NCBI GenBank assembly: GCA_049585415.1
Contig: JBAUZT010000019.1
Span: forward strand, 10,152 to 74,151
Direction: 5' to 3'
Source: Thermoplasmata archaeon
GTDB lineage: Archaea; Thermoplasmatota; Thermoplasmata; Lutacidiplasmatales; UBA184
DNA: 64,000 bases
The notes below the pieces were generated by a model that worked only from the letters and a program-made list of their open reading frames with translations, was not told the DNA's origin and made no database searches. Position numbers and translations under genes: made by a program. Below are positions 22,733 to 55,291 of this stretch, piece by piece (the first letter of the stretch is position 1; each line of letters begins with the position of its first letter).

Positions 22733-25700
22733 ATGCGCATGAACGCACCTCGCGCGAAGGTGGGTCTCGCCATATTGGTGACCTTGGTTCTGGTGGTCTC
22801 GTCGCTGGGATTACTCGGGGCCGTGGGAACGTCCACCGCGGCCAGTTCCACTCCGGCCCCGGCGAGCGCAGCCCATGCCGCCAGCACGTCGGTCCCCGCG
22901 TCGCCCACGAGCCTGAGCGCCGGATCGACGACCCCGGTGGCCCATCTCGGCACTCAATCGATCCCCCTGCCCGAGCCGACGGTCCCATCGGCCGGCGAAG
23001 CGAACACTCCGGCCGCTCAGAAGATTCTGCAATCCCTCTCCGCGAAGGGCGTCCCTCTCCACGACGTCTTCCTTCCCTACTTGATGAACGGTCCTCACCC
23101 GGGCCTTACGAATGGGCACGTCAACCTCACCTACACCAGCAGCCCCGCGCCGTACGGGATCGGCGACTTCGGACTCAAGAACGTCTCGGGGGTCATCACC
23201 CCCTACCGCCTTGCCACCCCGAGCGTGGAAGCGAACTTCTCCACCGACGGACTCTCGGGGTACTCCGCGGATATCAGCGGCCCGGACGAATGGGGAGTCC
23301 AGCTCAACGCCGTCCTCAACAACGTCACCCTGTTCGGCACGGGAGGCTACCAGTTCTGGACCCAGAATGTTATCGAGTACTCCCCGGCGCTCGGTTCCCT
23401 GACGCTCCTCAGTAACATCTGGAACTTCTCGGCCTACGAGGCCGCCCTGCCCTGTGACGTCTTCATCGAGTATACGGGAGTCCTCGCGTGCCCGGAGTTC
23501 TGGTATACCGCCTCGACCCCGATTCCCACCACCATCCCGTTCACTCTCCAACTGTACCTGAACTCGTCTCTGGTCGGTGGCCGGGACAAGGTCGACTTCA
23601 ACTACTCGCTGACCCAGGGTTCCGGAACGACCTCCGGCAACTACGCTCATGCGGTCTTCAACTCGCTCGCACCGGGGGGAAACCCGGCCCTGACCCCCGC
23701 GCCCGCGTATGTCGCGAACGGTGCGGCCTACAACCCCGCCGGTCTTCCGGACGACTTCGAAGTCATGCTGGGTGGCCCCGGCGGTGGAAGCAACTTTGAC
23801 GTTTATCTTGCCTCATACACCTACATGACGCTCCAGTACTGGAGCGCCGCCGCCCACGCTTATCTCACGGTCCCCTCCGCCTACAACGTCGGCGGGGATA
23901 CGGGCGAGACCTCGGTCGGCGTGAACGCGGCGTGGAGTAGCTTCACCTCGGAAGGGGGTTCGCCTCCGTCGGAGATCCCCACCAGCTGCCTCGCCTGCGT
24001 GACGCTGTCGAACGGCCCCTCCTTCCAGTATGGTCTTTGGAACGTGTTGGGCGCCGGGGTGCACGGATATAGCCCGCACGTCGAGACCGACTGGTTTGAC
24101 CAGTCCCACATTGATTTCGAGTTACAGCCCGGGAATGCGTTCCTGTTCCTCGCCGAATCCTGGCTCTTCACCTCATGGGGTGGGACCAACTTCTCTACGT
24201 TCCAATGGACCCCGAACTTCGATTGGACGACGGTTCACGTTGTCCTGCCGGTGGGGAACTACACGGTGGTTAGCGTGCAGTCGGAATTCGACCCACTGGC
24301 CGGTTCCTGGAGTTTCGTCACCAACCTCGAGACGGCTTCCGGCCTGTTTTCGATGGTCCCCGACCTCAACAATGGGGTCTACACGCCGCTGTGGGCGTTC
24401 AATACCACCGGGCTTCAGAAGATCTCCTCCGGAGTTGACGGTCTGGGCGACGACGTCCTCTTCAACAACGAGTACGCCAACATTGGCCAGATCCCCGATA
24501 CGACTACGTTCGGCGCCACCCCGTATTTCCCGTGGTTCGGACTCATGAACGACTACGGGTTCCCGGTGTTCCCAGGAATCCTTCTCTCCGGCGTGGATTT
24601 TGTGGACGTCACCAGCGCCCCCTCGTTCACGGTCGCGGCCCCCGGCGCGCCGAGTTATGACCTAAACCTCGTCAGGAACCTGGGATGGCCGGAGACAAAC
24701 AATCTCCAGATGTTCATCTGGGAGAGCGCGTTCATCACCTTGGCATCGTCCACGATCACGGGTTGGTGGCCGGCGGTCTCGTTCTTCGGCTTGAGCCAGT
24801 CCTTTGCGAACGTGGTCTTTTGGAACACCTCGTTCGCGGTGATCGACGGAAACCTGTTCTCTACCGGGGGGATGGCCCTCTTCCTGTACGGCGGGGAATA
24901 CAACGAGATCGAGGGCAACGTCTTCGAGACCGGATCCTCCCCGCCCTCCGCCAACCCGTCCGCGACCGTCGCGGAGACCCAAGGCTCGATCGGACTCGTG
25001 GACGCCGATTGGGGGGACGCGTACCTCTATGGCGCTCAGGCGTGGTTCAACTGCGTGGTGTGCGACGAGATCTACAACAACGCATTCATCACGCTCATCA
25101 CAGCGGACAGCCCGTCGTTGGACCCGTATACGGGGAACGCTCCGGGGCTCGCGCCCTACTCCTTCAGTCAGGCCTGGAACTTCGCGTACACGACGGGCTC
25201 CACCAACATCATCGGCGGGAACTACATCGGCGGGAACTACTGGTGGGACTACGGGTATGCCGACAACCCCTACGGATACCTGCCGGACGTCGAGCTGAGC
25301 TACGTGCCGTTAGTCGAGTCCCACGACTCCTCTCCCCCCGCGACCATCTGCGTGGACCCTTTGGGGTCGTGTGACCAGGGTGCAGGGGATTACTATCCCC
25401 TCGTGAACGTCCCGATCTACAACATCACGTTCAAAGAGCAGGGGTTGCCCACCGGGACGGAATGGGAGGTCGAAGTTTACGTCCCACCGTTGTACTACTA
25501 CTTCCAGGACGAGGACGAGTACAACTACACGCTCGCGCCCAAGGTGCTGAATTTCACCGAGTCCGCCGGCGACTGGTACTACTATCCGTACACCGGCGAC
25601 CCGAACTACGCGGCGTTCGACGGGAACGTCACGATCACGAACAAGAGCGTGGTGGTCCTCGTGAAGTTCCAGACCGCGTACAAACTCACGTTCATCGAGA

Positions 25701-26644
25701 GCGGTCTCCCCTCGATGACGGACTGGGACGTGGAGGTCGAGAACTATGCCACGGACTTTGAAGGGTACAACTACAGCGATCACCCTTCGATGAACGTCTC
25801 GGGCATACTCCCTGGAACGTACGAGTATTATTCCTACACGTACGGTTCGGCGTCCGGGAAGTACATCCCGTCCCCGAACGACGTCTACATCACTGTCAGC
25901 GCGAATGCGACCGTGCACATCACGTTCGCACCCGCGTACCGATTGTCCGTCCATGCCGTCGGGCTCCCCTCGGGGTGGGACTGGTACTTCTCCGCGACCG
26001 GCTCGGGGGCGAACTACTCCGAGTACACTTCCGACACGTGGTACAACGTCACGGTCGGCTCCGGCACGTACTCCTGGCAAACCCAGGCGGTGGGATACGC
26101 CGCTTCGCCCAGCTCGGGGACACTACCGGTGACGGCGAACACCACACTCACGATCACGTTCGTGAGCCTGGCCTCGGCCACCGGAGCCCTCTCCGGCACG
26201 GTCACCCCGGCGTCGGCCACCCTGTGGGTGGACGGTACCCCGGAGACCCTCGGAGCGGGCGGAAGCTACGACCTGACGCTCCCGATCGGCATCCATAGCG
26301 TCGAGGTCAAGGACTCGGGGTACGCGACGTACTTCAACAACGTCACGGTCTTTCTCGGCCAGACGACGACGTTGAACATCGCGCTCACGCCGGTCACGTC
26401 CTCGAGCAGCTCAAGTCCGGGCGGCATTAGCAACCTCGGCTGGATCCTGATCGCGCTCCTCGCAGCGGTCGCGGCGATCCTCTTGGTGACGACGTTGATC
26501 TTCGCGCGTCGCCGACGCACGCCGCCCCCCGTCGCCCCGTACAACGCGCCACCCTCCATGGGAGGCGCGGCGGGTGCGCCCCCGGCGGGCGCCGCCCAAC
26601 CGTGGCAGGAGTCCCCACCGCCACCGCCCGCCGGCGGCAGCTAA
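22733..26644 (+). CDS. very large surface (S-layer-like) glycoprotein with right-handed β-helix repeats, a PEGA-like domain and a C-terminal TM anchor
   Basis: Signal peptide (MRMNAPRAKVGLAILVTLVLVVSSLG), more than 40 N-x-S/T sequons, pectate-lyase/NosD-like repeat region (NLFSTGGMALFLYGGEYNEIEGNVFE), PEGA-like β-sandwich near the C-terminus, then a Ser-rich linker, a TM helix, RRRR and a Pro-rich tail. Confidence 0.7.
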   Translation: MRMNAPRAKVGLAILVTLVLVVSSLGLLGAVGTSTAASSTPAPASAAHAASTSVPASPTSLSAGSTTPVAHLGTQSIPLPEPTVPSAGEANTPAAQKILQSLSAKGVPLHDVFLPYLMNGPHPGLTNGHVNLTYTSSPAPYGIGDFGLKNVSGVITPYRLATPSVEANFSTDGLSGYSADISGPDEWGVQLNAVLNNVTLFGTGGYQFWTQNVIEYSPALGSLTLLSNIWNFSAYEAALPCDVFIEYTGVLACPEFWYTASTPIPTTIPFTLQLYLNSSLVGGRDKVDFNYSLTQGSGTTSGNYAHAVFNSLAPGGNPALTPAPAYVANGAAYNPAGLPDDFEVMLGGPGGGSNFDVYLASYTYMTLQYWSAAAHAYLTVPSAYNVGGDTGETSVGVNAAWSSFTSEGGSPPSEIPTSCLACVTLSNGPSFQYGLWNVLGAGVHGYSPHVETDWFDQSHIDFELQPGNAFLFLAESWLFTSWGGTNFSTFQWTPNFDWTTVHVVLPVGNYTVVSVQSEFDPLAGSWSFVTNLETASGLFSMVPDLNNGVYTPLWAFNTTGLQKISSGVDGLGDDVLFNNEYANIGQIPDTTTFGATPYFPWFGLMNDYGFPVFPGILLSGVDFVDVTSAPSFTVAAPGAPSYDLNLVRNLGWPETNNLQMFIWESAFITLASSTITGWWPAVSFFGLSQSFANVVFWNTSFAVIDGNLFSTGGMALFLYGGEYNEIEGNVFETGSSPPSANPSATVAETQGSIGLVDADWGDAYLYGAQAWFNCVVCDEIYNNAFITLITADSPSLDPYTGNAPGLAPYSFSQAWNFAYTTGSTNIIGGNYIGGNYWWDYGYADNPYGYLPDVELSYVPLVESHDSSPPATICVDPLGSCDQGAGDYYPLVNVPIYNITFKEQGLPTGTEWEVEVYVPPLYYYFQDEDEYNYTLAPKVLNFTESAGDWYYYPYTGDPNYAAFDGNVTITNKSVVVLVKFQTAYKLTFIESGLPSMTDWDVEVENYATDFEGYNYSDHPSMNVSGILPGTYEYYSYTYGSASGKYIPSPNDVYITVSANATVHITFAPAYRLSVHAVGLPSGWDWYFSATGSGANYSEYTSDTWYNVTVGSGTYSWQTQAVGYAASPSSGTLPVTANTTLTITFVSLASATGALSGTVTPASATLWVDGTPETLGAGGSYDLTLPIGIHSVEVKDSGYATYFNNVTVFLGQTTTLNIALTPVTSSSSSSPGGISNLGWILIALLAAVAAILLVTTLIFARRRRTPPPVAPYNAPPSMGGAAGAPPAGAAQPWQESPPPPPAGGS

Positions 26645-26837
26645 GGCCGCCCGTCGCGACATGGGTCCAACCATTTCCTCCTCTCGGATACAGACTCCCG
26701 CGGCCCGCAAAGGGTGCCGGGGGGCGCTCACGCCCTCGCACGGTCGTCGAGCGCACTGGTCAGATCGCTGTCGCAGCGCGGCGGCAGCGGGGGACCCCAA
26801 ATTTATTGTCTCACGTCTTGTTCGGCCCCCCTGCACA

Positions 26838-28673
26838 ATGCGGTCGAGGTTCGGGCGTCGCACGATGCGTCCGTGGTTCGCCCTGCTCGTGGCGGGGCTC
26901 TTCCTGGCGAGCTTCTCGGGGTACCTGGCCGCGCCCCACGCGGCCTCGTCCGAGGCTTCCTCGGTCGCACCTGCGGCCGTGCCCGCGAGCGCGTCCAATA
27001 CGGTGATCGCCACCATTCCGGACATCAGCTCCCCCACGACCGGAACGTACGACCCGGCGAACGGGGACATCTACCTCCCGGACACGACTCTGGGACTCGA
27101 CTCCGGGACCAACGGGACCAACCTGACGATCATCGACGGCGCGACCAACTCCGTCACGGCCGTGGCGAGCCTCGGGATCAATGCTTACTACGAGACCCCC
27201 ACTTACGTGCCCCCAAACGAGGAGCTCTATGTCGCCGACCAGAACGGGTCGTTCGGCGTCAACAACGTCACGGCCTATACCGGGACGGACCACGTTGAGG
27301 CCAACATCGACACCGGAAACGCGTCGACGCCCACGACGCCGGTATACGACCCCGTCAACAAATACCTCTACGTTTCCGACCAGAACACGGCGTCGCTCAC
27401 CGCCCTCAACGACAACGTTTCGGTGATCAACACGACGACCAACACCCTCGTGACCCAGATTGGGGTCGGGTATGGCCCCGACCCGGGAGTTTACGATCCC
27501 GCGGACGGGGACGTCTACGTGCCGAACTTCAATTTCGGGAGCGGCACCAACCTCAGCATTATCAATGCGACCTCCGACACGGTCATCGACACCATCTCGC
27601 ATCTCAGCTCTCCGATCACCCCGGTCTACAACCCCGCCAACCAGGAGGTCTACGTCCCAGACGGCGGCCTGAACTCCTCGAACCTCACGATCCTCAAGGG
27701 AACGACGGTCGTGAAGACGATCGAGTTCAACACGGCCGACTCGGGTGACTTGTTGACCCCGGTGGTCGACTCGGCCAACGGGGACGTGTTTGTGACCCTG
27801 TACGCCACCGGTGGGATGGCCGTGCTCTCCCCCTCCAACACGGTCGTGACGACGATCTCCATCGGGGTCGAAAACTCGTTCTACAACCACCCGTCGACCT
27901 ACGACCCAGTCAACGGGGAGGTTTACGCCCCGGGGTACAGTTTCTATGGCGAGACTGGCGGGGTCTTCGCCATCAACGGCACAACCAATACGGTCACCAC
28001 CCTGATCGACGTCGGGGGCGCCCCCCAAACCCCCGTCTTCGACCCGGCCAATGACGAGGTATTCGTCCCGAACGAGGACACGAACAACGTAAGCGTGATC
28101 GACGGCGCTGCGTCAGGGGCGCCGCCACCGCCACCGGGCGAGTACGACGTGACGTTCACGGAGACGGGACTTCCGTCCGGCGCCTGGTGGAAGGTGACGT
28201 TCGACGGAACGACGATGAACGAGACCTCGAACTCGATCGTATTCTCGGACTACGCGAACAACTCGTACCCGTACACCCTTGATGGCTGGTACAGCGAGAG
28301 CACGTGCACTTCGGGGCTGACGAGCCCCTCGGGGATGCTAACCGTCAACGGCAAGGCGGCCACGATGACGATGCCGTTCACTTGCTCCAGTTCTACCCCG
28401 CCCCCGAGCTCGGGAGGCGGGGGATCGTCGTCCGGCTTCCTCGGCCTTCCCGGAGATGATGGCTACTTCCTGATCGGGGGCGTTGTCGCTGCCGTGGCGG
28501 TCGGACTGGCGGCTCTCCTGCTTCTCCGCGGCCGCGCTCCCAAGGGCGGCTCGTTCGCCGGAGCGCCCATGGGAGCCGGCGGCATGGCTCCCGGCGGTGC
28601 GCCACCTCCTCCGCCACCGCCTCCTCCCCCCCCGCCCGGCACGGGATGGCCGCCCCCACCGCCGCCGCCATAG
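26838..28673 (+). CDS. YVTN-family β-propeller repeat surface protein with a C-terminal TM anchor and poly-proline tail
   Basis: Signal peptide. Eight or more YVTN repeats (GTYDPANGDIYLPD, PVYDPVNKYLYVSD, GVYDPADGDVYVPN, PVFDPANDEVFVPN...). C-terminal TM followed by PPPPPPPPPPPPGTGWPPPPPPP. Confidence 0.75.
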   Translation: MRSRFGRRTMRPWFALLVAGLFLASFSGYLAAPHAASSEASSVAPAAVPASASNTVIATIPDISSPTTGTYDPANGDIYLPDTTLGLDSGTNGTNLTIIDGATNSVTAVASLGINAYYETPTYVPPNEELYVADQNGSFGVNNVTAYTGTDHVEANIDTGNASTPTTPVYDPVNKYLYVSDQNTASLTALNDNVSVINTTTNTLVTQIGVGYGPDPGVYDPADGDVYVPNFNFGSGTNLSIINATSDTVIDTISHLSSPITPVYNPANQEVYVPDGGLNSSNLTILKGTTVVKTIEFNTADSGDLLTPVVDSANGDVFVTLYATGGMAVLSPSNTVVTTISIGVENSFYNHPSTYDPVNGEVYAPGYSFYGETGGVFAINGTTNTVTTLIDVGGAPQTPVFDPANDEVFVPNEDTNNVSVIDGAASGAPPPPPGEYDVTFTETGLPSGAWWKVTFDGTTMNETSNSIVFSDYANNSYPYTLDGWYSESTCTSGLTSPSGMLTVNGKAATMTMPFTCSSSTPPPSSGGGGSSSGFLGLPGDDGYFLIGGVVAAVAVGLAALLLLRGRAPKGGSFAGAPMGAGGMAPGGAPPPPPPPPPPPPGTGWPPPPPPP

Positions 28674-28813
28674 TCGTGGGCCAGTTCGAACGGCGAAGTG
28701 AATCCACGACATTGGGCGCCCCGAGCTCTAGAGATTGTCTGATCGAGGTCGGAGCTCGATTCGGCCGAAACTATGGAGAGAAGGGGTTCGGGCCGATCCC
28801 GAGGACCGGGGGA

Positions 28814-30982
28814 CTAGGACGCCGGGGGCGGTGAACCCGGCCCCGTGGGAGCTGTGTTCGGTTGCCCGGGTTGCGTGGTGGTCGGCTTCTTCCGACGCCG
28901 CATGAGCAGCACCGCTGCGACGATCACGACGAGCACGACCACGACACCGACGATCAGGTAGGTCAACGTCGCACCACTCAGGCCCGAGCTGGAGCTCGGG
29001 CTGGGGCTAGGACCGGGCGACGGAGCCGCGCTCACGGTGATGGTGACCGAGTTCTTGGCCGTCCCGCCGACGGTGTCCGTGACCGTCAAGTTCACGACGT
29101 AATTGCCCGCCCTCGCGTAGGTATGCGCCGCGGGATCCTGTGCGGTGCTCGTGGTCGCATCGCCGAAGCTCCATGCGTAGGTGTACGTCCCGCTGCCCCC
29201 GGTGGGGCTCGTCGTGAAGGTGACCGCTCCGCCCGCCGTGATCGTCGTCGCGGAGGCGGTGATCGTGGCGGCCACGACCGGGTTCACCGTGAGGCTGACG
29301 CCGGAGCTGGTGCCCTCGATGTAGAAGAAGTCCGACCACGTCACCGTGGCCGTGAAGGCGCCCGACGTGCCGTAGGTGTACGGGATCATCTCCGAGTACG
29401 CCGCCGAGCTGCTCTCTCCGGCCGCCGCGCGCAGGAGTGTATGCATCCCGTCGCCGGTCGAGAGGTTCCAGCCGGCGTACCATCCGGTACCCGTACCCAC
29501 CGCCCACGCCGCGGTGAAAGTGACCGCAGTTCCCAGGTCCATGGGGTTCGGGGTCGCGGTCAGCGTCGCCTGGGGCGGGGTCTCAAAGACCCACTCGTGC
29601 CCGTCGCAGTTTACGGGGAAGTAGCAAGAACCGCCGACCAGGAACACACCGATGCCGGTGGAATTCACAGCGAGGGCGGGCCCCTCGAGCGGGACGTAGG
29701 AGGCCGGGGCTGCGGGGCTGATCGCATGCCAATGTCCGGCGAGGAACTCCCAACTGTCGTTGTACTCTCCGTAAGTGGCGTTGTACCCGGCGGTCAAGAA
29801 GACACCGCCGAGTTGGGCATCCCAGGTGATCGCGATGTCGCTGCGGCCCGGCGGGGTGCAACCGAGCGCGCAGCCGCCGTCCATCCCGGTGATGTTGACC
29901 CAGTTGTCAGCAAATTCCGTGCCCCCAGAGTAGGTGTACGTGTAATTCGTGTACGGGTACTCGGTGTAGAAGTCCCATCCGCCGAACAGGACCATGTACC
30001 CGTCGACCGGATCGTAGGCCATCCCCGGTTCATCAAGGAAGGTACCGTCGGCCAGGTAACCGGGCCCGTAGTCAATCGTGTGCCAACCGGTCGAGTTGAG
30101 AAGCCACGTGTACTCTTGTGAGTAGTCGCAGGAGTTGTCGTCGCAGCCATCGACGAGCAAGAATCCATGGAGCGCGGGGTCCCAAGCGGCCCCGGACCCG
30201 CCGATACCTCCCTCCGCCAGGTAATGGCGGAGGTTGTCCAGAAGGGGTCCCGTGGTCCCCGTGATGTTCTTCCAAGTGCCCGTGAAGAGCCACGTGTCGT
30301 TGAGACCCAAGCCGTCGACGTTCCACCCCCCGACGAGGATGACTCCACCCATGGCCGGATCATAGTCGAAGCCGAAGAACCACCGCGCGGAGGGCACCGT
30401 GTGGCCGAGAGTCGAGGTCAGGTTGGTCCAGGTATCCCCGTTGTACACCCAGGTGATGCTCTCGTAGGGGTTGTTAGGGTTCTCGACGCCGGTACCCGAG
30501 AACAACACGACTTCACCCAGGAGAGGATCAAACGCCATCCGCGCGCCGTACCCGATTGCGGGGACCACTCCACCCGATGCCTTCGCCACGTTCGTCGTGA
30601 CATTGTACCACGATGGGTCGGTTCCCGAAAGCGTCGGTGTATGAGCGGGCGAGGCCATCGCGGCGGCAGGGCCCTTCCGGGCACTGTCTCCGACGTTCGT
30701 GATGTCACGAGGAGCCGAGCCGCCACAGGTGGCCGCCGTTCCGGAGCTCACCGCGCACGTCGCGGTGGATCCGGATCGCGCGGCGCCCGCGTTGAGGTTC
30801 GCGACAGCCTTCTGAAGCAATGCAGTCCCGGCCGGCGTGGCATCGGAGGCCGGATGGGCTGAGCCTGAGGGGGTGCCGGAAATCGGTAGGCCGACGCCTT
30901 GAGCCGCGGCGACGAACCCACCACTCATGATGGCTACAACGACGATGGCCACGACGGCGGTCAGTAGTGGGGTCCGCGACAT
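28814..30982 (-). CDS. Kelch/galactose-oxidase-like β-propeller plus PKD-domain surface protein with a C-terminal TM anchor
   Basis: Signal peptide MSRTPLLTAVVAIVVVAIMSGG, Kelch-like repeats (GGW...DTW), a PKD motif (YAWSFGDATTS...HTYARAGNYVVNLTVTD), a Ser/Pro linker, then TM-RRRKK and a Pro-rich tail. Confidence 0.7.
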   Translation of the reverse strand: MSRTPLLTAVVAIVVVAIMSGGFVAAAQGVGLPISGTPSGSAHPASDATPAGTALLQKAVANLNAGAARSGSTATCAVSSGTAATCGGSAPRDITNVGDSARKGPAAAMASPAHTPTLSGTDPSWYNVTTNVAKASGGVVPAIGYGARMAFDPLLGEVVLFSGTGVENPNNPYESITWVYNGDTWTNLTSTLGHTVPSARWFFGFDYDPAMGGVILVGGWNVDGLGLNDTWLFTGTWKNITGTTGPLLDNLRHYLAEGGIGGSGAAWDPALHGFLLVDGCDDNSCDYSQEYTWLLNSTGWHTIDYGPGYLADGTFLDEPGMAYDPVDGYMVLFGGWDFYTEYPYTNYTYTYSGGTEFADNWVNITGMDGGCALGCTPPGRSDIAITWDAQLGGVFLTAGYNATYGEYNDSWEFLAGHWHAISPAAPASYVPLEGPALAVNSTGIGVFLVGGSCYFPVNCDGHEWVFETPPQATLTATPNPMDLGTAVTFTAAWAVGTGTGWYAGWNLSTGDGMHTLLRAAAGESSSAAYSEMIPYTYGTSGAFTATVTWSDFFYIEGTSSGVSLTVNPVVAATITASATTITAGGAVTFTTSPTGGSGTYTYAWSFGDATTSTAQDPAAHTYARAGNYVVNLTVTDTVGGTAKNSVTITVSAAPSPGPSPSPSSSSGLSGATLTYLIVGVVVVLVVIVAAVLLMRRRKKPTTTQPGQPNTAPTGPGSPPPAS

Positions 30983-31220
30983 CCCCTCCCTGTGCGCGCC
31001 CTCGTACATAGACCTGCCTAGAGAATCCCATCGGACAGCCCGCGCCGCTCCGCTCCCATGACCGTGGTCGGCTGTTCATCCATGGGATCCCGCGGGTACG
31101 AGCCAACTCGAGCGGATAGACCGCTCGGGATTTGTCCGATTGTGGGTTCAAAAAGGATTACGGCGCCCATCGGCGGGTTCCGCGACCGTGGGTTAATCCG
31201 CTCGAGCAGGATGGCCGGCC

Positions 31221-34200
31221 GTGGCAGCGGGGCGTCGGCTCTCGGCGGTCATGCTGACCGACATCGTCGGGTACTCCGCGTTGAGCCAACGCGACGAGAC
31301 CGCCGCACTCCGGCTCGTCGACGAGCATCGGCAGATCGTCCGGCCGGTGCTCGCCGAGTTCGAGGGCACAGAGATCAAGACCATGGGGGACGGGTTCCTG
31401 ATCGAGTTCCCGAGCGCGCTGAGCGCGGCCCTCTGCGCGATCGAGCTCCAGCGGCGCATTAACGAGCGCAATCAGTCGGCGCAGGGCGAGCGGATGCAGC
31501 TGAGGATCGCGCTGCACGTCGGCGACGTGACCCATGAGGGCGGCGACATCTTCGGTGACGCGGTCAACATCGCGAGTCGGCTGGAACCGCTCGCCGACCC
31601 GGGCGGGATCCTGGTCTCGGGTCCGGTCTACGACCAGATCCGCGGCAAGATCGAGGGCGACCTCACGCAGATCCCGACCCCGACCCTAAAGAACATCGCC
31701 ACCCCGGTGACCGCGTACCGGGTCGAACTCGCCTGGAGAGCGCCGGCGCTGCCCCGCGTTACCCCCTGGACGGATCGGGAACGCGAGATCGACTCGCTTC
31801 GGCCGCTCCTTCAGGACGTTCACCGTGGTGAAGGGAGCCTGGTGATAGTCCAGGGCGAGTCCGGGGTGGGGAAGACCCGACTCGCGGAGGAACTCCTCCA
31901 CGAAGCGGAGCCGGCGGGCTTCCGTGTCCTCCGCGGTCGGTCGTTCCGAGGGGAGGACGTCGCCTACGGCCCCTGGGCCCAAGCGATCCGCTCGTTCGTC
32001 CAGGACGCGTCCCCGGGGATCTTGATGCGCGCGTGCGGACCGTTCTCCGCCGACCTCGCCACGCTACTGCCGGAACTGGCCGACCGTCTCGGGCCGGCGC
32101 CGGCGACTTCGTCCGAGGCCCCGGACCAGCTGCGGGGTCGCATGCTCGAAGGCCTCGCCGGGTTCCTCGTCGCGCTCTCCCGAGAGGCGCCGCTCGCCAT
32201 CCTGCTGGACGACTTCCAGTGGGCCGACGTCTCCTCCCAACGACTCCTCCAGCGCCTAGTCTACGACCTGCCGGGCCATCGGATCCTCGTCCTTGCCTGT
32301 CTGCGCGAATCGGACCGGGAAGAGTCCCCGGGGCTCCAACGCCTACTGCTCGACCTTCGTCGCTCGCGACCTCCGACCGTCATCGGACTGAAGCGATTCT
32401 CCCGCGCGGAGTTCGACAACTTTGTCGACCGCCTCGTCTCCCGCCCGACGCTTCCCGAATCTCCGCGAGCCATCGTCTTCGAGAAGAGCGGCGGGAACCC
32501 GTTCTTCGCTGAAGAGCTCGTGCGTCGTCTGCTCGACGACGGGACCCTTCGGCGTTCCGGCGACGGATGGATCTTTTCGTCCTCGACCGACCTGCGGCTT
32601 CCGGAGAGCGTGCGCGCCCTCCTGAGCGAGCGGCTCGCGCACCTGGATGCCCCGACCCGAGAAGTGCTTCGGATCGCCGCGTTCGCCGGGCCGACGGTCT
32701 CGTTCGACGTGTTGAAGCACCTCGCGGGGATGAACGAGGACGAGCTGACGATCGCCCTCGAGCGCGCCCTTCAAGCACGGGTCCTGAGGGAACTGCCCGG
32801 GGCGCTCGCGGGCGACGAGCTGGCGTTCACCGACCTTCAGACCCGACAGGTCCTCCTGGACGAGGTGAGTCGCATCCGGGGTCGGCAATATCACCGCAAG
32901 GTCGCGGAGGCGATCGAGTTGCTCGACCCGCATGCACGGGATGCCCGCGCGGCGGAACTGGCCGAGCACTTCATCGAAGCCCATCAACCTGCGAAGGCGC
33001 TCGAGTACCTCGAGCTCGCGGGGGACGAGGCGACCCGGGTCTCGGCGTACGCGGATGCTGCCCGGCACTACGCTCTGGCCCTCGAACTCGCGGAGGAGGA
33101 GCGCGTCGTCACGCCCCGCGCGCGGCTCGTAGAACACCTCGCGGACGCCCAGATCAGCGAGGGCGAGTTGAACAGGGGGCGCGAGGGTTGGCAGAAGGCG
33201 GCAGAGCTGTACCGCACCGCGGGCGACCTCCGCCGGGCCGGGGAGATCTACGGCCGCATCGCGAAGACCTACTGGACCTACACGGACGATGAGTCTCGGT
33301 ATCGGGACGCCTACGGGAAGGCCCTCGAGCTGCTACGAACGCTCCCTCCCGGCCCAGAGCTCGCCCGGCTCCTCGCGTTCACGAGCTACGTCTTCGGATT
33401 CTGGGGGGACCACAGCGGGGCCCGGACCGTGGCCGCCGAGGGGCTCGAGCTCGCCCGCCAGCTGAAACTCCCCGCCGCGGAGGCACTCGCGGAGGTCGGT
33501 CTCGCGGTGATCGCACCGTTCCCCGACAAGGAGGGCGCGCTGAGTCACATCCGGAAGGCGGTGTCGCTGGCCCCAGTCGAGGATCTGGAGGCCTGGTTCT
33601 CGGTGCGAGGGATCTGGTCCGTCGTCATATCGAGCCTCCTAGAGGACCCCCTCGAGGCGTCGCGAGTGGACGAAGAGACCTGCGAGGAGGTCCACCGGCG
33701 TCGGCTCCCCGCCCTAGAAGTCCACGAGCACGACATCCTCGCCAGTAGATTCGCCGACATGGGCAACGTCACCAAAGTCCGGGAGCACCTCGCGCTCGGG
33801 AACGCGATCCGAGCTCGCTTGGCGTTCGAGGAGGGGCCGACCAGCGGGGCATTGAGATCCGCCCGTTCGCCGGGTCCGGACGAGATCGACGCCGCGGTGA
33901 AGTTCCACCTCGCCAACTTGGAGCGGTACGAGCGAAGTGCCCCCTGGCACTGGGGAGTGTTCCAAACGATGGCGCAACTGGGATTCTTGGCGCTCCAGCG
34001 CGACGACACCGAGGGCGCCCTCGCCTGGGCAGACCGGGCGCTCCGCGGTCTGGCGGAACACGGACGTACGGCATGTCTCGCGCCGACGTATGCGACTCAC
34101 CTGCTGCTGTCCGTTCGCGCGAACGCGGCCCTGGGCCGGACGGAGTTCGCCCTCACGCGTCTACTCGAGCTCCGGGCCGCGGCAGATGCCGCGCAGCTCC

Positions 34201-34490
34201 AGCTCATGCTCGGCTGCGCCCGAGAGGCCGAGGGTCACCTCGCACGAGCCGAAAAGCGGCCGGGCGATTCCGCGCGAGCCTTCCAGGAAGCCGAGGAACT
34301 GTTCACGCGTCGCCGAGTGATGAGCCCCGCTCTCGAATGCCGGATCGAGCTCGGCGTCGCGCTGAACCACTCCGGTCATCGCGAGGAGGCCCGGCTCCTA
34401 TGGAAGGGAGCGTTCGAGGCGGCGGCGACGATGGGATTCGACGGGCTGGCGGCTCGAGCGCAAGGTCTGCTGGCTCATGCGGATGGGTGA
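31221..34490 (+). CDS. class III adenylyl/guanylyl cyclase domain fused to an AAA+ ATPase and TPR-like repeats (STAND-like signalling protein)
   Basis: N-terminal CHD catalytic motifs (MLTDIVGYS, EIKTMGDGFLIEF, RIALHVGDV, GDAVNIASRLE). Walker A QGESGVGKTRLAEEL, Walker B LLDDFQWAD. A long α-helical repeat region follows, with no C-terminal HTH. Confidence 0.75.
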   Translation: MAAGRRLSAVMLTDIVGYSALSQRDETAALRLVDEHRQIVRPVLAEFEGTEIKTMGDGFLIEFPSALSAALCAIELQRRINERNQSAQGERMQLRIALHVGDVTHEGGDIFGDAVNIASRLEPLADPGGILVSGPVYDQIRGKIEGDLTQIPTPTLKNIATPVTAYRVELAWRAPALPRVTPWTDREREIDSLRPLLQDVHRGEGSLVIVQGESGVGKTRLAEELLHEAEPAGFRVLRGRSFRGEDVAYGPWAQAIRSFVQDASPGILMRACGPFSADLATLLPELADRLGPAPATSSEAPDQLRGRMLEGLAGFLVALSREAPLAILLDDFQWADVSSQRLLQRLVYDLPGHRILVLACLRESDREESPGLQRLLLDLRRSRPPTVIGLKRFSRAEFDNFVDRLVSRPTLPESPRAIVFEKSGGNPFFAEELVRRLLDDGTLRRSGDGWIFSSSTDLRLPESVRALLSERLAHLDAPTREVLRIAAFAGPTVSFDVLKHLAGMNEDELTIALERALQARVLRELPGALAGDELAFTDLQTRQVLLDEVSRIRGRQYHRKVAEAIELLDPHARDARAAELAEHFIEAHQPAKALEYLELAGDEATRVSAYADAARHYALALELAEEERVVTPRARLVEHLADAQISEGELNRGREGWQKAAELYRTAGDLRRAGEIYGRIAKTYWTYTDDESRYRDAYGKALELLRTLPPGPELARLLAFTSYVFGFWGDHSGARTVAAEGLELARQLKLPAAEALAEVGLAVIAPFPDKEGALSHIRKAVSLAPVEDLEAWFSVRGIWSVVISSLLEDPLEASRVDEETCEEVHRRRLPALEVHEHDILASRFADMGNVTKVREHLALGNAIRARLAFEEGPTSGALRSARSPGPDEIDAAVKFHLANLERYERSAPWHWGVFQTMAQLGFLALQRDDTEGALAWADRALRGLAEHGRTACLAPTYATHLLLSVRANAALGRTEFALTRLLELRAAADAAQLQLMLGCAREAEGHLARAEKRPGDSARAFQEAEELFTRRRVMSPALECRIELGVALNHSGHREEARLLWKGAFEAAATMGFDGLAARAQGLLAHADG

Positions 34491-34637
34491 AGGCCGAGCC
34501 CGACGATCGGGATCGGGCCGTTGCGGCCAGGGTGGGGAACGCCACTCCTCCATCCCGTAGGCGATGTAGGGCGCGTCGCGGCCCGTTCGGGTGCACGACC
34601 GGAGCTGCCTCCTAAGGGGGCTGCACTCCGAGCCGGA

Positions 34638-34711
34638 TGGACTGGTCGGGATTTGAACCCGAGGCCTCCGGTTTGCAAAACCGGCGATCTTCCGGACTGA
34701 TCTACCAGCCC
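34638..34711 (-). tRNA. tRNA-Ala (anticodon UGC)
   Basis: Reverse complement GGGCTGG-TA-GATC...GATC-G-CCGGT-TTTGCAA-ACCGG-AGGCC-TCGGG-TTCAAAT-CCCGA-CCAGTCC-A folds as a canonical 74-nt cloverleaf with a G3:U70 pair. Confidence 0.85.
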
Positions 34712-34823
34712 ATCCGGCGCGTCAGGTGAGCTTCTCGGTCTTAGCCTTTCGGACGACCGCGATGCCGCCGGTGGTGGCCCGCTCCCCGGGAAACGCCATC
34801 TACCCCGCTCGGGTCGCCGGTGC

Positions 34824-35871: not shown

Positions 35872-38415
35872 CTACTGCGCGCCCGACGGGGGAGTCGGGA
35901 GCGGAGGTTGTGCGTCGGGCGCGGGAGCGTCCGTGGGAGGGGTTGAGGGAGTCTCCTTCCATTCCGTTGCCGGTGCGGTCGACGGAGCGGGCGCCGCGGG
36001 CGACATCGGCTCGGTGGCCGAATAGGTCGACGGAGTCGACTTCGGGCTCCGGCCGCGCCGCATCAGGAGGAACAGCACCAGCGCGACCGCGATGATCACG
36101 ATCAGGAGGATCAACATCCCTACCGTGAACCCGCTCCCGGCCCCGAGCTCCAGGCTCAGAAGCGACGGGTGGGCGTTGACGGTGATCGCCGTCTGGGCCC
36201 AGCAGTAGCCGGTGAAGTTGCTTTCCTCTTCGCAGCCCGGCCCGCTGAACAGACCGTGCGCGTAGACCTCGCCCCCGATCCCCAGTGAGCCCGAGGGGGT
36301 GTTCGAGGGGATCGTGAGTCCGATCGTCCCCGACGTCGCGGTGGTCGCGAGGGTCTCGGCGACGGCGACATTGGGGCCGAAGAAGAACGCGAGCGGGCCG
36401 AGAGCGATGTACACCTGGTACGTCGGGGGAAGCGGAAGTCCGCTGTACGAGTAGACCGCCCACGAGACTTGGATCGTCTGGCCGGGCTGGTAACTTCCGT
36501 CCGCGTAGTTGGAGGCCGTGCTCACGCCGATCTCGACGTAGTACCCGGTCTCGAGTTCGCTATCCGTACCCGCGGTGGCGTACACTCCGGTCGCCGTCGT
36601 CTGAGCGGAGACCTCGAGATCGTAGTACGTCGCCGCTCCGGTCCCGGGAACGGAGTAACTGACGACGTTGGACGAGCCGACCGTGCCGGTCGCCACGAGT
36701 CCGTTCGAGATCTCGTCACCGTACTGGTCGTCCCAGTAGCCGATCACCGTGTAGGTCGTCGTCGTGCCGGCGAGGGCTGCCGGCGAGAAAACGAGGTTCC
36801 AGCTGAGCTGGGACCCCGGCGTGAAATAGAGTGATCCCGAGACGGCGAGGGTCGGTTGCTCGACGATGGCGTACGCCCCTCCGGAGAAGCTCGAGGTGGC
36901 GTTCGTCGCGATGACCCAGACGTAGAATTGGCCCAGGAGGTCCGCGGGCAGCGGGACCGTGAACGTGCCGGTCGAGGCGGTGCTGGTGATGGATCCCGTC
37001 GCGAGCAGACCGCCGTTTTCCGTCGCGAGCTCCCACTCGGTGGCGTCAAGCGCCCCGACGGACGTGTTGGAGGAGCTGAGGGTCCAGGTCGCCGTTACGG
37101 TCGCGCCCGGGGCGTATTCGTTGGCGTTGAGCGCCACTTCCACCGCGCCCGTGGCGGCGCCGGGGGCCACCCGGAACGAGCCGTTATGCCAGGTGGTCCA
37201 TGCCCCTACGCCGGTGGCCTTGGTGTCGTTCACCGTGATGTTGACGGCGTTCACGAACGGGTGGACGGTGTCGAGGGTGAACGGAGGGACGTCGGCGGTG
37301 AACGAGAACGAGACCTCGCCGTTCGCGGCGGTGCTCAACGTAGTGGGTGGGTTACCGCCGGGCGTGACGTGGGTCGTGCCGTTCCAGAAGGCGATGGTGA
37401 CGGTCAGTCCCGGGACGGGGTTGAACTGGGCTCCAGCTTCCGCGCCCGCATATCCGATGACTTGGACGGGGCAGCCCACGAAGAACGCGCCGTCATTGAC
37501 CGTTCCACAGGGCGACGACATCGAGCCACCCGAGATCCAGGTGTTGCCTACGAACAGCGCGCTGTAGTAGGTCCAGTTGGCCGTGACCGTGCTTCCGACC
37601 TTGACCACGCCGGAGAGGTTGAAGTAGAACGTCGTGAGGGCGGCGGCGTCCGTCGGGATAGTGAACGTCGTGCTGCCCGCGGCCGTGAGCGGTAGGGCTA
37701 CGAGGGCCGTAGAGAACGCGTCGTGGTAGGCAGTGCCGTTGTAGTAGGAGCCCCAGAGGGTCAAGTTGGTGAGGTCGTTGTAGGCGCCACCGTTCGCGGC
37801 GCTGACGACCCACCAGTTGAGCGTGACGGATTCTCCCGGGAGCACGGCCGAACCCTGCGCCGGGTTCGACTGGTCCGAGACGCCGTAAGTGTAGAGTGTC
37901 AGGTTCTCGAAGGCGAACCCGCCGAGGGGAGCCGAAACGGTGACGTTCCATCCACCACCGTAGACGATGGCGGACGGGAAGGTGTAGACGAGGCCGTTCT
38001 GGGCCGGGGTGCTACCGTGGGTGATCGAGTCGATGGCGACCGATGCCGAGAACACGGGGTTCGAGAGCCCGTCCCGGGTCGCGTTCGGGTCATTGAGCGT
38101 GAGGTTGACGGTCGCGTCCGCGTCGGTGTCATGGACCTTGAATTGGATCGAGTTGACCCCGGGCGTGGGGAAGTACGGTGGCGATCCGCCGGGATCGTAG
38201 TACGGGCCGGAGTAGAATGCCGGGGTCGTGGTACCTGCAAGGTTGGAGGTCGTTACGGTGAGCGCCGGCACGTCGGGGGTGGCCGCGGTCGTGAACGGCG
38301 AAGCTTGCGGGGTGGACGCGCGCGGGGCGCCCGAGGTGGTCCCCGCGAAGGAACCGATCAGGACGGATACGATCAGCAGGGTGACCAAAGCGGTGGCTAC
38401 GACTACGCGCGACAT
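35872..38415 (-). CDS. large surface (S-layer-like) glycoprotein with a C-terminal TM anchor
   Basis: Signal peptide MSRVVVATALVTLLIVSVLIGSFAG. 847 aa, Thr/Ser/Gly-rich β-type sequence with many sequons. C-terminal TM (GMLILLIVIIAVALVLFLLMRRGR) and a Pro/Thr/Ser-rich tail. Confidence 0.65.
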   Translation of the reverse strand: MSRVVVATALVTLLIVSVLIGSFAGTTSGAPRASTPQASPFTTAATPDVPALTVTTSNLAGTTTPAFYSGPYYDPGGSPPYFPTPGVNSIQFKVHDTDADATVNLTLNDPNATRDGLSNPVFSASVAIDSITHGSTPAQNGLVYTFPSAIVYGGGWNVTVSAPLGGFAFENLTLYTYGVSDQSNPAQGSAVLPGESVTLNWWVVSAANGGAYNDLTNLTLWGSYYNGTAYHDAFSTALVALPLTAAGSTTFTIPTDAAALTTFYFNLSGVVKVGSTVTANWTYYSALFVGNTWISGGSMSSPCGTVNDGAFFVGCPVQVIGYAGAEAGAQFNPVPGLTVTIAFWNGTTHVTPGGNPPTTLSTAANGEVSFSFTADVPPFTLDTVHPFVNAVNITVNDTKATGVGAWTTWHNGSFRVAPGAATGAVEVALNANEYAPGATVTATWTLSSSNTSVGALDATEWELATENGGLLATGSITSTASTGTFTVPLPADLLGQFYVWVIATNATSSFSGGAYAIVEQPTLAVSGSLYFTPGSQLSWNLVFSPAALAGTTTTYTVIGYWDDQYGDEISNGLVATGTVGSSNVVSYSVPGTGAATYYDLEVSAQTTATGVYATAGTDSELETGYYVEIGVSTASNYADGSYQPGQTIQVSWAVYSYSGLPLPPTYQVYIALGPLAFFFGPNVAVAETLATTATSGTIGLTIPSNTPSGSLGIGGEVYAHGLFSGPGCEEESNFTGYCWAQTAITVNAHPSLLSLELGAGSGFTVGMLILLIVIIAVALVLFLLMRRGRSPKSTPSTYSATEPMSPAAPAPSTAPATEWKETPSTPPTDAPAPDAQPPLPTPPSGAQ

Positions 38416-38543: not shown

Positions 38544-39227
38544 ATGACCGAGATTTTGCCGGGGATTCACCTGGTCCCCGGCGTCGACCCGAGCCCAGAT
38601 TTCACGACCCACGTCTACCTGGTAAAGGACAAGGGGTCCACGTGGACGCTGATCGATACCGGTCTTCCGGGAGCCCATGCCGCGATTGAGAGGTACCTCG
38701 CCCAGTTGAAGATCGAACCGACCTCGATCAAGAAGATCTTGCTCACCCACCTCCACCGGGACCACGTCGGGTCGCTGAAGCCGATGGCGAACCGCACGCA
38801 CGCCAAGACCTACGCTCACTGGATCGAGGCCGCGTACATTGCCGTAGACCCCCCCTACACCGGTCCCGGCACCCCCCCCGCCGAGCCGTTCGTCGTCGAC
38901 GAGACGTTCAAGGATGGCGACCTGATCGATGCCGCCGGTGGCCTCATCGCCTACCACACTCCGGGTCACACCCCCGGCCACACCTCCTACTACCAGCCCG
39001 AGCGGAAGCTCCTCTTCGGAGGCGACCTCTTCTTCGTGGATGGGGAGACGGTCTCTCTCACTCCGGACGAGTACAGCCACCACCGCCAGACCGCGCTGAT
39101 ATCGGCCCGTCGCATGAACCAACTCGCCGTGGATTCCCTGCTGAGCTACCACGGTGGTCCCGTGCTGAAGAACGGCGGCAAGGCGATGCGGGCGTTCGTC
39201 GAACCGAAGTTCGCGCAACCCAAGTAA
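38544..39227 (+). CDS. MBL-fold metallo-hydrolase
   Basis: HLHRDHVG (the HxHxDH motif), YHTPGHTPGH. Confidence 0.8.
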   Translation: MTEILPGIHLVPGVDPSPDFTTHVYLVKDKGSTWTLIDTGLPGAHAAIERYLAQLKIEPTSIKKILLTHLHRDHVGSLKPMANRTHAKTYAHWIEAAYIAVDPPYTGPGTPPAEPFVVDETFKDGDLIDAAGGLIAYHTPGHTPGHTSYYQPERKLLFGGDLFFVDGETVSLTPDEYSHHRQTALISARRMNQLAVDSLLSYHGGPVLKNGGKAMRAFVEPKFAQPK

Positions 39228-39274
39228 GGCCCGGGGCACGGCCCGGACCGCACGGCTCCTGCCCTCGTCGCCGA

Positions 39275-39349
39275 TGGGACTGGCCAGATTTGAACTGGCG
39301 TCTCGGAGTCCCGAACCCCGAAGGATGGACCAAGCTACCCCACAGTCCC
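39275..39349 (-). tRNA. tRNA-Pro (anticodon CGG)
   Basis: Reverse complement GGGACTG...CGGGG-TTCGGGA-CTCCG...GCCAG-TTCAAAT-CTGGC-CAGTCCC-A, with a perfect 7-bp acceptor stem. The D-arm is slightly atypical, so the anticodon call needs tRNAscan-SE confirmation. Confidence 0.7.
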
Positions 39350-39572
39350 AGCGCGAGGTCGCGGACCTCTCTGCGCTATTTGAGCACGCGGGACGAGCGC
39401 GGCCCATCGGAGAGAGAGCGGGTGTTTCGGGACCTCCCGGAGGTGGTATTCAAGGCGTTCCGGCCATCCGGAGCTCGACCGTATGACATCGTCGTCGAGC
39501 GCCCCTCCGCTGCCGGTACCTGCACTCGACTCCCTTTCGTGGAGCATTCCGGGCTTGCGGGAAGACCCGTCG

Positions 39573-46836: not shown

Positions 46837-47148
46837 CGAAAAACGGGACGCGTCCCCCCTTCAAATGCGTTCGGTCGAAGTCGTCGGGCCCTTCCGACGG
46901 TCACCGGGCCGACGCGACGCAGTCTGCGCGACTCCGGCACCGAAAATTCAAAATTTCTTACAGAAGGTTCTTATGGCACGCGCTCCTCGCATCGCCGCCC
47001 GAGGCCCGGGTAGGCGTCGACGGTGCCACCTGAATCAGACGACCGGTCACCGGAAACGGCGGCCCGGTTGGAATCGCAAACCGCCACTGGGGCGGCCACG
47101 CCCGTCAGTGACCGCCCCCCGAGCGGAGGGGCCGCGCCCGATCCCGCC
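46837..47148. other. candidate replication-origin/promoter region upstream of orc1/cdc6
   Basis: An AT-rich island (GAAAATTCAAAATTTCTTACAGAAGGTTCTTATGG) unusual for this genome, a 12-bp perfect palindrome GGGACGCGTCCC (46845..46856), and inverted partial ORB-like cores (CACCGGAAAC ... CCAGTGG on the opposite strand). Confidence 0.25.
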
Positions 47149-48450
47149 ATGGGGTCCGCGTCCCCTCCGCCCGGAACCACCGCCACCGAGTTCCTCGATG
47201 CGTTCCTTCAGCAGAAGAGCGAACTGTTCCGGGAGAGCCGCGAGGTCCTTCGCGATTCGTACGTTCCCGCGCGCCTCCCCCATCGGGACGGGGAGATCCG
47301 TCAGGTCGCGGAAGTGCTCGCGCCCGCGTTGCGCGGGGACGTGCCGTCAAACCTCTTGATCTACGGCAAGATCGGGACCGGGAAGACCGCGGTCGTCACG
47401 CAGGTCCGCCAGGACATCCAGCGGCGCGCCGAGGGCACCTCGAAGGTCACGTTCGTCACCGTCAACTGCGGGAACATCGACACCGCCTACAGTCTGCTCC
47501 AGAACGTCGGCAACACGTTCGCGAAGACCGAGGCCGACCGCATCCCCACGGGCTGGTCGCTCGACCGGGTCCAGGCCGCGATGCGTCGGTTGATGGACAC
47601 GAAGGGCGGGACGATCGTCCTCGTGCTGGACGAGATCGACCGACTGGTCGCACGGAGCGGCGACAACGTCCTCTACACGCTGAGCCAGCTCAACACCGAG
47701 CTCGAGACCGCCCGCCTCGTCCTCCTCGGGATCTCGAACGACCTCAAGTTCACGAACCACCTCGATGCGCGGGTTCGCAGCCGCCTCAACGAGGAAAAGA
47801 TCCTCTTCGACCCGTACAAGGCGCCCCAGCTCCAGGATATCCTTCAGGACCGCGCGAAGGTCGCCTTCCGCGACGGGGTCGTCGACCCCGGCGTGATCGA
47901 GCTGTGCGCGGCCTACGCCCAGCTCGAGAGCGGCGACGCCCGCCGCGCCCTCGCGCTCCTCCGGCTCGCCGCCGAGATGGCCGAGCGCGACCACGCGAAG
48001 CGGATCACCCGCGATCACGTCGTGAAGGCGAAGAACCGCCTCGAGAAGGACATCATCATCGAGTGCTGCCGATCGCTCCCGCCCCATTGCAAGGTCCTCC
48101 TCTACGCGATCCTCCAGTCGTACGAGCGACGCCGTACCGGCGTCCTCACCGGCGAGGTCTACGACAACTACAAGCGCCTCGCAGAGCGCCTCGGTCTCGC
48201 ACCGCTCCACGCCCGGTCAATCTCGAACTACGTGAGCGAGCTCGAGTCGCTGGGCCTCATCCGCGCGACGATCGTCTCCCGGGGCCGCGGAGGCCGCACT
48301 CGGGAGATCCAGGTCGACGTACCGATCTCGGAGACGATGCCCGCGCTCGAAGAGGACCCGCTCCTCGCGCCGATCGGTCGACCGAAGAGCCGCGGCCAGA
48401 CGCTCCTCACGAACTTCGACAATCCGGGGCGCACCGGTCCGACGTACTGA
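47149..48450 (+). CDS. orc1: Orc1/Cdc6 replication initiator
   Basis: AAA+ Walker A LLIYGKIGTGKT, Walker B VLVLDEID, a winged-helix C-terminus. An N-terminal LRDSYVPARLPHRDGEI region. The start could alternatively be 47023. Confidence 0.85.
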   Translation: MGSASPPPGTTATEFLDAFLQQKSELFRESREVLRDSYVPARLPHRDGEIRQVAEVLAPALRGDVPSNLLIYGKIGTGKTAVVTQVRQDIQRRAEGTSKVTFVTVNCGNIDTAYSLLQNVGNTFAKTEADRIPTGWSLDRVQAAMRRLMDTKGGTIVLVLDEIDRLVARSGDNVLYTLSQLNTELETARLVLLGISNDLKFTNHLDARVRSRLNEEKILFDPYKAPQLQDILQDRAKVAFRDGVVDPGVIELCAAYAQLESGDARRALALLRLAAEMAERDHAKRITRDHVVKAKNRLEKDIIIECCRSLPPHCKVLLYAILQSYERRRTGVLTGEVYDNYKRLAERLGLAPLHARSISNYVSELESLGLIRATIVSRGRGGRTREIQVDVPISETMPALEEDPLLAPIGRPKSRGQTLLTNFDNPGRTGPTY

Positions 48451-50181: not shown

Positions 50182-50311
50182 GGGCACCGGACCGAGGCGA
50201 ATCGACCGCAAGAGTAGATAGGGGTTTGCCGACCCGACCGCGTCTGAAGGAGATCGCCCGGCCGCGACGCGGGGGTAAAGACTTTCGCGAGAGGGGGCTA
50301 CCGGGAGAGTC

Positions 50312-55281: not shown

Positions 55282-55291
55282 GGAGGGGGCG

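Follow-up and report, generated by a model that had tools for sequence, protein, structure and literature searches.

The mycobacterial proteins Rv0386, Rv1358 and Rv2488c combine a nucleotidyl cyclase domain with an AAA_16/MalT-like NTPase domain, tetratricopeptide repeats (TPR) and a helix-turn-helix (HTH) domain of the LuxR/GerE type. Rv0386 is a class IIIc cyclase that contains a Gln/Asn substrate pair and shows a guanylyl side activity through non-canonical residues. Non-immune STAND ATPases, such as MalT, PH0952 (6mfv) and AfsR, share a nucleotide-binding and oligomerization domain (NOD) and a TPR sensor, with a DNA-binding domain as the output. We analyzed a 64,000-nucleotide stretch of DNA from a Thermoplasmata archaeon (hereafter, the window; assembly GCA_049585415.1, contig JBAUZT010000019.1, positions 10,152 to 74,151), in which a complete gene (31221..34490, plus strand) encodes a 1089-amino acid (aa) protein consisting of a class III cyclase homology domain (CHD), a STAND NOD and a TPR-type sensor. 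The protein has the domain order of Rv0386 (1085 aa) minus the LuxR domain, a resemblance to mycobacterial proteins that had been correctly recognized in an earlier, sequence-only reading of the window, but it contains the canonical Lys/Asp pair instead of Gln/Asn and, unlike MalT, PH0952 and AfsR, has an N-terminal enzyme, the cyclase, as its output. This architecture is already known, being common in bacteria, and in JGI homologs already carry the label “class 3 adenylate cyclase/TPR repeat protein”; the window gene reveals no new kind of system. Most likely, with a probability of roughly 60%, its product is a signal-regulated adenylyl cyclase, soluble and cytoplasmic, that is native to this Thermoplasmata archaeon.

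The extent of the gene is supported by several lines of evidence. The open reading frame (ORF) list gives a single ORF of 1089 aa on the plus strand with a GTG start, at exactly the coordinates proposed earlier (the end coordinate includes the stop codon), and the N-terminus lines up with the family start in the family alignment. The same protein is present in NCBI as MGA8543096.1 (“MAG: AAA family ATPase [Thermoplasmata archaeon]”), and an identical copy is found in Logan contig L002, an independent assembly from SRR28061373. The 1089-aa protein lacks both a signal peptide and any transmembrane segment, its highest Kyte-Doolittle mean over 19 residues being 1.59. A sister contig (L001; ERZ25039587 contig_77214, 296 kb) is 99.7% identical to the window and has the same gene order; there, a single-base insertion at L001:5998 (window 32023) splits the gene, resulting in an 821-aa annotation (P0001) that lacks the cyclase domain, and a second one at L001:4664 (window 30690) fragments the neighboring PKD gene. 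Because both the window and the Logan assembly are intact, these frame breaks are most likely assembly indel errors, and we rejected the interpretation of P0001 as a pseudogene. In NCBIfam, the only matches were partial and below threshold, namely, to LipJ and to the TOMM kinase/cyclase fusion family (TIGR03903). The cyclase, AAA_16 and next region align to positions 358-945 of the latter model (E 1e-53), but at 182 bits the score stays far below the cutoff of 705.75, and the window protein has no N-terminal Ser/Thr kinase domain.

The CHD (aa 5-172; 31233..31736, plus strand) is delineated by a Pfam match, matches to solved structures at the sequence and structure levels, and a census of catalytic residues. 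Guanylate_cyc (PF00211) matches aa 9-141 with 51.9 bits (cutoff 21.9; E 9e-14), and the motifs MLTDIVGYS (aa 11-19), KTMGDG (aa 53-58), RIALHVGDV (aa 95-103) and ASRLE (aa 118-122) are all in place; these four and the two NTPase motifs described below make up the six that had been quoted in the sequence-only reading, each at its stated position. In phmmer searches of solved structures, the best matches were the cyclases 3mr7 (E 2e-33, with 38% identity to the CHD), Ma1120 and Rv1900c, and superposition of the CHD from an AlphaFold2 model on Ma1120, Rv1900c and 3mr7 with Foldseek gave target template-modelling (TM) scores of 0.87-0.93 and root-mean-square deviations of 1.4-2.3 Å. The domain is compact and most similar to the mycobacterial Rv1900c and Ma1120 structures, both of which we take to be class IIIc. 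All six canonical catalytic residues are present: D14 and D57, which bind metal, K53 and D109, which specify adenine, and N116 and R120, which stabilize the transition state, with R95 conserved beside them. The spacing of these residues, K-x3-D and D-x6-N-x3-R, is canonical, as judged by the numbering of Rv1625c and mammalian C2.

The canonical class III residues show little or no variation across the 96 sequences of the family alignment, and among 101 members of the clade described below, D14 is kept in 100, K53 in 99, and D57, D109, N116 and R120 in all 101, so that with R95 included the catalytic residues are retained in 99 to 101 of the 101 proteins. By contrast, of 40 bacterial STAND-cyclases sampled, only 17 retain the Asn and 36 the Lys. 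Because the catalytic set is complete and near-invariant in both the alignment and the census, the possibility that the domain is a pseudo-cyclase, which would have refuted the sequence-only reading by its own account, can be dismissed. The substrate-specifying residues K53/D109 form a Lys/Asp pair of the adenine type, which predicts ATP as the substrate. The identity to the family is highest in the CHD (55%) and decreases through the nucleotide-binding domain (41%) and the winged-helix region (34%) to the TPR region (28%, then 17%), a gradient that fits a conserved output combined with a diversifying sensor. Given that no other part of the protein is as conserved as the CHD and that its catalytic residues are nearly invariant, selection on catalysis with ATP is indicated.

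The CHD is followed by a STAND-type P-loop nucleotide-binding domain (aa 183-356; 31767..32288, plus strand), which matches AAA_16 (PF13191) over the same residues (E 9e-29; 101.5 bits, cutoff 32.6) and is supported by Foldseek. The Walker A motif GESGVGKT (aa 212-219; 31854..31877, plus strand) has G212, G215, G217 and K218 invariant in 96 sequences. In the Walker B region, AILLDDFQWAD (aa 326-336; 32196..32228, plus strand; LLDDFQWAD, aa 328-336), which was examined in two alignments, D330 and D331 are near-invariant, whereas D336 is invariant in one alignment (A1) and kept in 90% or more of the sequences in the other (A2). Thus, the earlier assignment of a Walker A/B NTPase is borne out, although the domain is of the STAND/MalT-like type rather than the classical AAA+ ATPase that had been proposed. 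The helical and winged-helix modules of the NOD (aa 366-550; 32316..32870, plus strand), delineated from the secondary structure of the model and from the alignment, include the STAND “GxP” motif, GGNPFF (aa 424-429), in which G425 and N426 are invariant and P427 is near-invariant. The NOD sequence itself had no match in the PDB, that is, pairwise similarity to solved NODs is not detectable.

The remainder of the protein (aa 551-1089; 32871..34487, plus strand) is a TPR-like alpha-solenoid, a putative sensor, which in the AlphaFold2 model consists of about 16 helical hairpins, is all-helical, has a predicted local distance difference test (pLDDT) score mostly above 90, and varies more than any other part of the protein. 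The model as a whole, built as a monomer with the family alignment (pLDDT 90.6, predicted TM score 0.71), begins with an alpha/beta domain (aa 5-168), continues with the P-loop domain and its helical and winged-helix modules until about aa 550, and ends in helical hairpins that extend to aa 1089. In Foldseek searches against the PDB, the first match was the Pyrococcus STAND-TPR protein 6mfv (E 1.4e-11) and the second one was Avs3 (8dgc, E 4e-11), with Apaf-1 ranking lower. Pfam detected no significant TPR match in the single window sequence, whereas the family profile for aa 575-1087 matched MalT domain III (1hz4, E 6e-18), the TPRs of LGN/Pins, the PH0952 sensor and AfsR; the TPR assignment therefore relies on the family profile and the model. 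Accordingly, of the approximately 600 aa of TPRs in the sequence-only reading, the TPR-like nature stands, whereas the length is closer to 540 aa and a single-sequence Pfam match is lacking. The absence of a C-terminal HTH was confirmed: no HTH family was found in Pfam at E<0.01, and in the model the TPR-like hairpins reach the last residue. We therefore rejected the classification of the protein as an LAL/LuxR-type regulator of the Rv0386 kind.

A word-indexed search with the window protein returned 1902 matches, the top ~110 of which are proteins of 1080-1100 aa with PF00211, PF13191 and TPRs; those with a named source all come from a “Thermoplasmata archaeon” or a “Nitrososphaerales archaeon”. 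Below this group, the score drops from at least 370 to at most 324 bits, and the next full-length STAND-cyclases score at most 309 bits, the first named one being bacterial (Candidatus Abyssobacteria). Among the matches listed for GTDB species representatives, the best full-length ones are two from Thermoplasmata (37-38% identity) and one from a metagenome-assembled genome (MAG) of Bathyarchaeota (35%), followed by Actinomycetota, Chloroflexota, Proteobacteria and others at 27-34%. In a neighbor-joining tree of aa 1-620 (141 sequences, 200 bootstraps), the window protein, the top matches and the labelled archaeal loci form a single clade (197/200), in which all taxon-labelled members are archaeal, from Thermoplasmata, Bathyarchaeota or Nitrososphaerales; the majority, however, are metagenome proteins without a taxon label, for which an archaeal origin is suggested by their place in the clade. 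The sub-clades containing Bathyarchaeota and Nitrososphaerales are supported by 200/200 bootstraps each and appear lineage-specific, each with a single labelled member. The window protein shares on average 42% identity with its own clade but 31% with the bacterial sequences, among which the maximum is 33.5%. The contig of one unlabelled close relative (P0010) carries thermopsin and HTH_10 genes. An exhaustive search yielded about 45 clusters (50% identity) at 370 bits or more, and, for the wider superfamily, 13,186 such clusters at E<=1e-30, with mixed architectures. Thus, the window gene is native to an established, diversified archaeal family, with archaeal membership established for its taxon-labelled members. 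The sequence-only reading had considered this architecture rare in archaea, with widespread archaeal homologs as the observation that would speak against its view; with the ~110 best matches in one clade and all labelled members archaeal, the rarity claim largely falls.

Bacterial proteins with the same CHD-AAA_16-TPR architecture and without an HTH, of 1089-1221 aa, were found in Chloroflexia (L012), Actinomycetes (L007) and Candidatus Abyssobacteria (P0117), and CHD-STAND proteins of ~1090 aa that resemble these dominate the lower part of the top 150 in the exhaustive search. They differ from the window protein in being only ~31% identical over aa 1-620, in falling outside the archaeal clade (197/200), in the frequent loss of the catalytic Asn, and in having other nearest CHD relatives. 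Because the nearest full-length bacterial relatives also lack the HTH, the HTH-less form is not an archaeal peculiarity, nor is it the special trait for which it had been taken. In Mycolicibacterium elephantis (L037:2942-8587), a SARP (Trans_reg_C + BTAD)-CHD-AAA_16-TPR arrangement, with the longest ORF of 1882 aa, is effectively AfsR-like with an inserted cyclase domain.

The CHDs of the archaeal STAND proteins group with those of a CHD-TPR family, away from the CHDs of bacterial STAND-cyclases (200/200 bootstraps). The proteins of this family (for example, L083:12102-14024, L050 and the L048 array) are ~645 aa long, with CHDs 46-56% identical to that of the window protein and C-terminal TPRs, and are found in the same archaeal lineages, but they lack the STAND NTPase, are often encoded in tandem, and also occur in Verrucomicrobiae and Alphaproteobacteria. 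Since this type of CHD is common to archaea and some bacteria, inter-domain transfer must have occurred at some time. In their middle region, these proteins of Thermoplasmata, Bathyarchaeota, Nitrososphaerales and the two bacterial groups show a weak FlgO-like similarity. Tandem arrays of CHD-TPR genes are common, with four genes in 11 kb of a Nitrososphaerales MAG (L048:1171-10916), and further CHD-TPR loci are L080, L003:5404-7332 and L074, in addition to L083:12102-14024.

The domain organization suggests how such a cyclase could be regulated. The active sites of class III CHDs lie at the dimer interface, so that these domains are active only as dimers, and MalT, Apaf-1 and Avs proteins pass from a closed monomer to an oligomer upon sensor engagement and nucleotide exchange. 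By analogy, the C-terminal TPR solenoid would bind a ligand or a partner protein; the STAND NTPase, acting as a nucleotide-dependent switch, would exchange its nucleotide and oligomerize; and oligomerization would allow the N-terminal CHDs to pair head-to-tail, switching on the synthesis of cyclic AMP (cAMP). Activation by oligomerization is thus what we infer from the better-studied STAND proteins, and the existence of downstream cAMP receptors would likewise be expected. Several observations weigh against this picture of a regulated adenylyl cyclase. The AlphaFold2 model is that of a monomer, and dimerization is not visible in it; some class III domains with the Lys/Asp pair still have side activities; and neither a receptor that binds cyclic nucleotide monophosphates (cNMP) nor a phosphodiesterase was identified in the scanned part of the window. 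Furthermore, literature searches turned up no biochemical work on class III cyclases from archaea, and the role of the NTPase domain is reportedly unstudied even in Rv0386, the closest characterized analogue.

The sequence-only reading had explained the gene by horizontal acquisition from Actinobacteria into an archaeal surface-protein island beside a tRNA. The architecture was indeed first described in mycobacteria, archaea are said to have few class III cyclases (PMC8646023), a tRNA-Ala gene lies 145 nt downstream, and the CHD subfamily is shared by archaea and some bacteria; nevertheless, a recent transfer of this kind is very improbable, being contradicted by composition, by the repeat search and by the tree. 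With a GC content of 0.688, a GC content at third codon positions (GC3) of 0.836 and a correlation of relative synonymous codon usage (RSCU) of 0.956, the cyclase gene is indistinguishable from the Lhr, UvrB, Nre and Elp3 genes of the window, that is, a comparison of codon usage with housekeeping genes gives no sign of a foreign gene. A blastn-short comparison of tRNA-Ala and tRNA-Pro with the window detected no tRNA-derived repeat longer than 13 nt, no integrase was noticed among the ORFs scanned, which cover part of the window, and the sister genome has the gene in the same context. The ~110 closest relatives belong to the clade (197/200) whose labelled members are archaeal, outside of which the sampled actinobacterial proteins fall; these are ~30-33% identical to the window protein and, among the matches listed, no closer than those from Chloroflexota or Proteobacteria. 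Thus, with bacterial relatives spread over several phyla at a mean identity of 31%, and the CHD closer to the CHD-TPR family, neither a recent nor a specifically actinobacterial transfer is supported.

Two other explanations concern function rather than origin. The protein could be an antiviral or conflict STAND of the Avs kind, in which the TPRs would recognize a viral protein and the cyclase effector would deplete ATP or make a Pycsar-like alarm nucleotide. The order of effector, NOD and TPR is that of Avs, Avs3 is the second-best structural match, the C-terminal sensor evolves fastest, the homologs are multi-copy and not syntenic, and in the STAND tree, defense clades are scattered among non-defense ones (PMC13581612). 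In PADLOC, the cyclase domain gave a weak match to PycC (E 1.4e-5), the fold of which is homologous, but no Avs model matched, and the PycC match reflects general cyclase-domain homology. A Pycsar system proper was rejected on the same grounds, given the low score (22 bits), the Lys/Asp pair, which specifies a purine rather than a pyrimidine, and the lack of an adjacent effector gene. The neighbors of the window gene are surface proteins, an oxidoreductase and tRNAs, and no defense genes or cNMP-binding effectors were seen beside it or beside its homologs in L083-L086. Moreover, the gene occupies the same position in the sister genome, viral contigs yielded one weak match that is confined to the NTPase (NOD) region, and the main text of a 2026 survey of STAND proteins mentions no cyclase effector (PMC13581612), all of which makes a defense function unlikely. 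It is also quite improbable that the CHD is not an adenylyl cyclase in vivo, but instead makes cGMP or another cyclic nucleotide, or serves as a dimerization or scaffold module for the STAND-TPR part. Such a role would be compatible with the guanylyl side activity of Rv0386, which has the same architecture, with the many sampled bacterial STAND-cyclases that lack the catalytic Asn, and with the NCBI annotation of the window protein, which goes no further than “AAA family ATPase”. However, within the archaeal clade the six catalytic residues and R95, including the K53/D109 pair, are essentially invariant, and conservation along the protein is highest in the CHD.

If the window gene encodes a signal-regulated adenylyl cyclase, as we favor, it bears on the origin of archaeal cAMP. 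Cyclic AMP has been measured in archaea, but class III cyclases are described as very few there, and the archaeal CYTH proteins, assigned to “class IV”, are not cyclases, which leaves its source unclear (PMC8646023). Genome annotation has pointed to class III cyclases in Nitrososphaeraceae (PMC13577086) and sponge Thaumarchaeota (PMC9289680), and our literature search found no paper that characterizes the archaeal CHD-STAND-TPR clade. As the window gene shows, at least some of the abundant, uncultured archaea of soil possess a sizeable class III cyclase family that is built on a STAND scaffold and has fully intact catalytic residues. This clade is a plausible, concrete candidate for cAMP synthesis in archaea and also offers an enzymatic read-out for STAND activation. 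Tentatively, and with less than even confidence, we propose that, together with the CHD-TPR family, it could be the main machinery that generates cAMP in the Thermoplasmata, Bathyarchaeia and Nitrososphaerales of soils and sediments. If so, there would be genuine class III-based cAMP signaling in archaea, gated by a NOD-like oligomerization switch, and a partial answer to the origin of archaeal cAMP.

The immediate neighborhood of the cyclase gene agrees in part with the surface-protein island described earlier. Upstream, at 28814-31009 on the minus strand, lies a divergent gene for a membrane-anchored PKD/Kelch protein; downstream, a tRNA-Ala gene (34635-34712, minus strand) is followed by a luciferase-like monooxygenase gene and, beyond it, a gene for a large Ig-like surface protein (35872-38415). 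Thus, the surface genes on both sides and the nearby tRNA are confirmed, whereas the monooxygenase gene intervenes between the tRNA and the downstream surface gene. Because the upstream gene is divergent and the tRNA-Ala gene is on the opposite strand, the cyclase gene is probably transcribed alone and appears monocistronic; a scan for sigma-70 promoters and terminators, which is not applicable to archaea, found nothing. No paralogs of the cyclase gene were found within the window, and an all-vs-all comparison of the flanking ORFs of 8 clade loci identified no recurrent operon partner, the only recurrence being a loose one of thermopsin/PKD-type surface proteins. A role in envelope sensing, as suggested previously, is not supported by these data, given the absence of a transmembrane segment or signal peptide and a surface-gene recurrence near homologs that is no more than loose.

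The large predicted surface or secreted proteins that flank the cyclase gene (22733-31009 and 35872-38415) comprise a thermopsin, a 699-aa protein of unknown function, the PKD/Kelch protein and the Ig-like protein. Relatives of these proteins are encoded within 8 kb of cyclase homologs at three other loci (L084:8119-9914; L085:14452-18039; L086:2031-4550 and 13470-14705), which may reflect no more than the background frequency of such genes in these genomes. Farther downstream, a gene for a protein with a metallo-beta-lactamase (MBL) fold (38544-39227, plus strand) adjoins tRNA-Pro (39273-39350, minus strand); in the sister contig, this gene is annotated with 356 aa, which would overlap the tRNA-Pro region. 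Its match to the Anti-Pycsar protein Apyc1 is weak and far below the cutoff (20.8 bits against 50); nothing points to a cyclic-nucleotide phosphodiesterase, and we treated the protein as a generic metallo-beta-lactamase.

Beyond these loci, the window has archaeal gene content, including thermopsin, Nre, an Elp3-type radical-SAM/GNAT protein and Orc1/Cdc6. Three long ORFs on the minus strand (9093-11411, 48890-52447 and 55274-57403) have a low GC3 (0.63-0.68) and a very high GC content at first codon positions (0.83-0.91), values typical of spurious ORFs that lie in the wrong frame or strand of real genes when the genome is GC-rich. A tRNA at 12717-12880 (plus strand; Rfam RF00005, 41.8 bits), which was missed by ARAGORN, contains an intron of ~90 nt in the anticodon-loop region. 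Such tRNA introns are a hallmark of archaea, and this one supports the assignment of the host. The Orc1/Cdc6 gene (47023-48450, plus strand) encodes a protein with Cdc6_lid, Cdc6_C and AAA_16 domains, and a replication origin may be located nearby.

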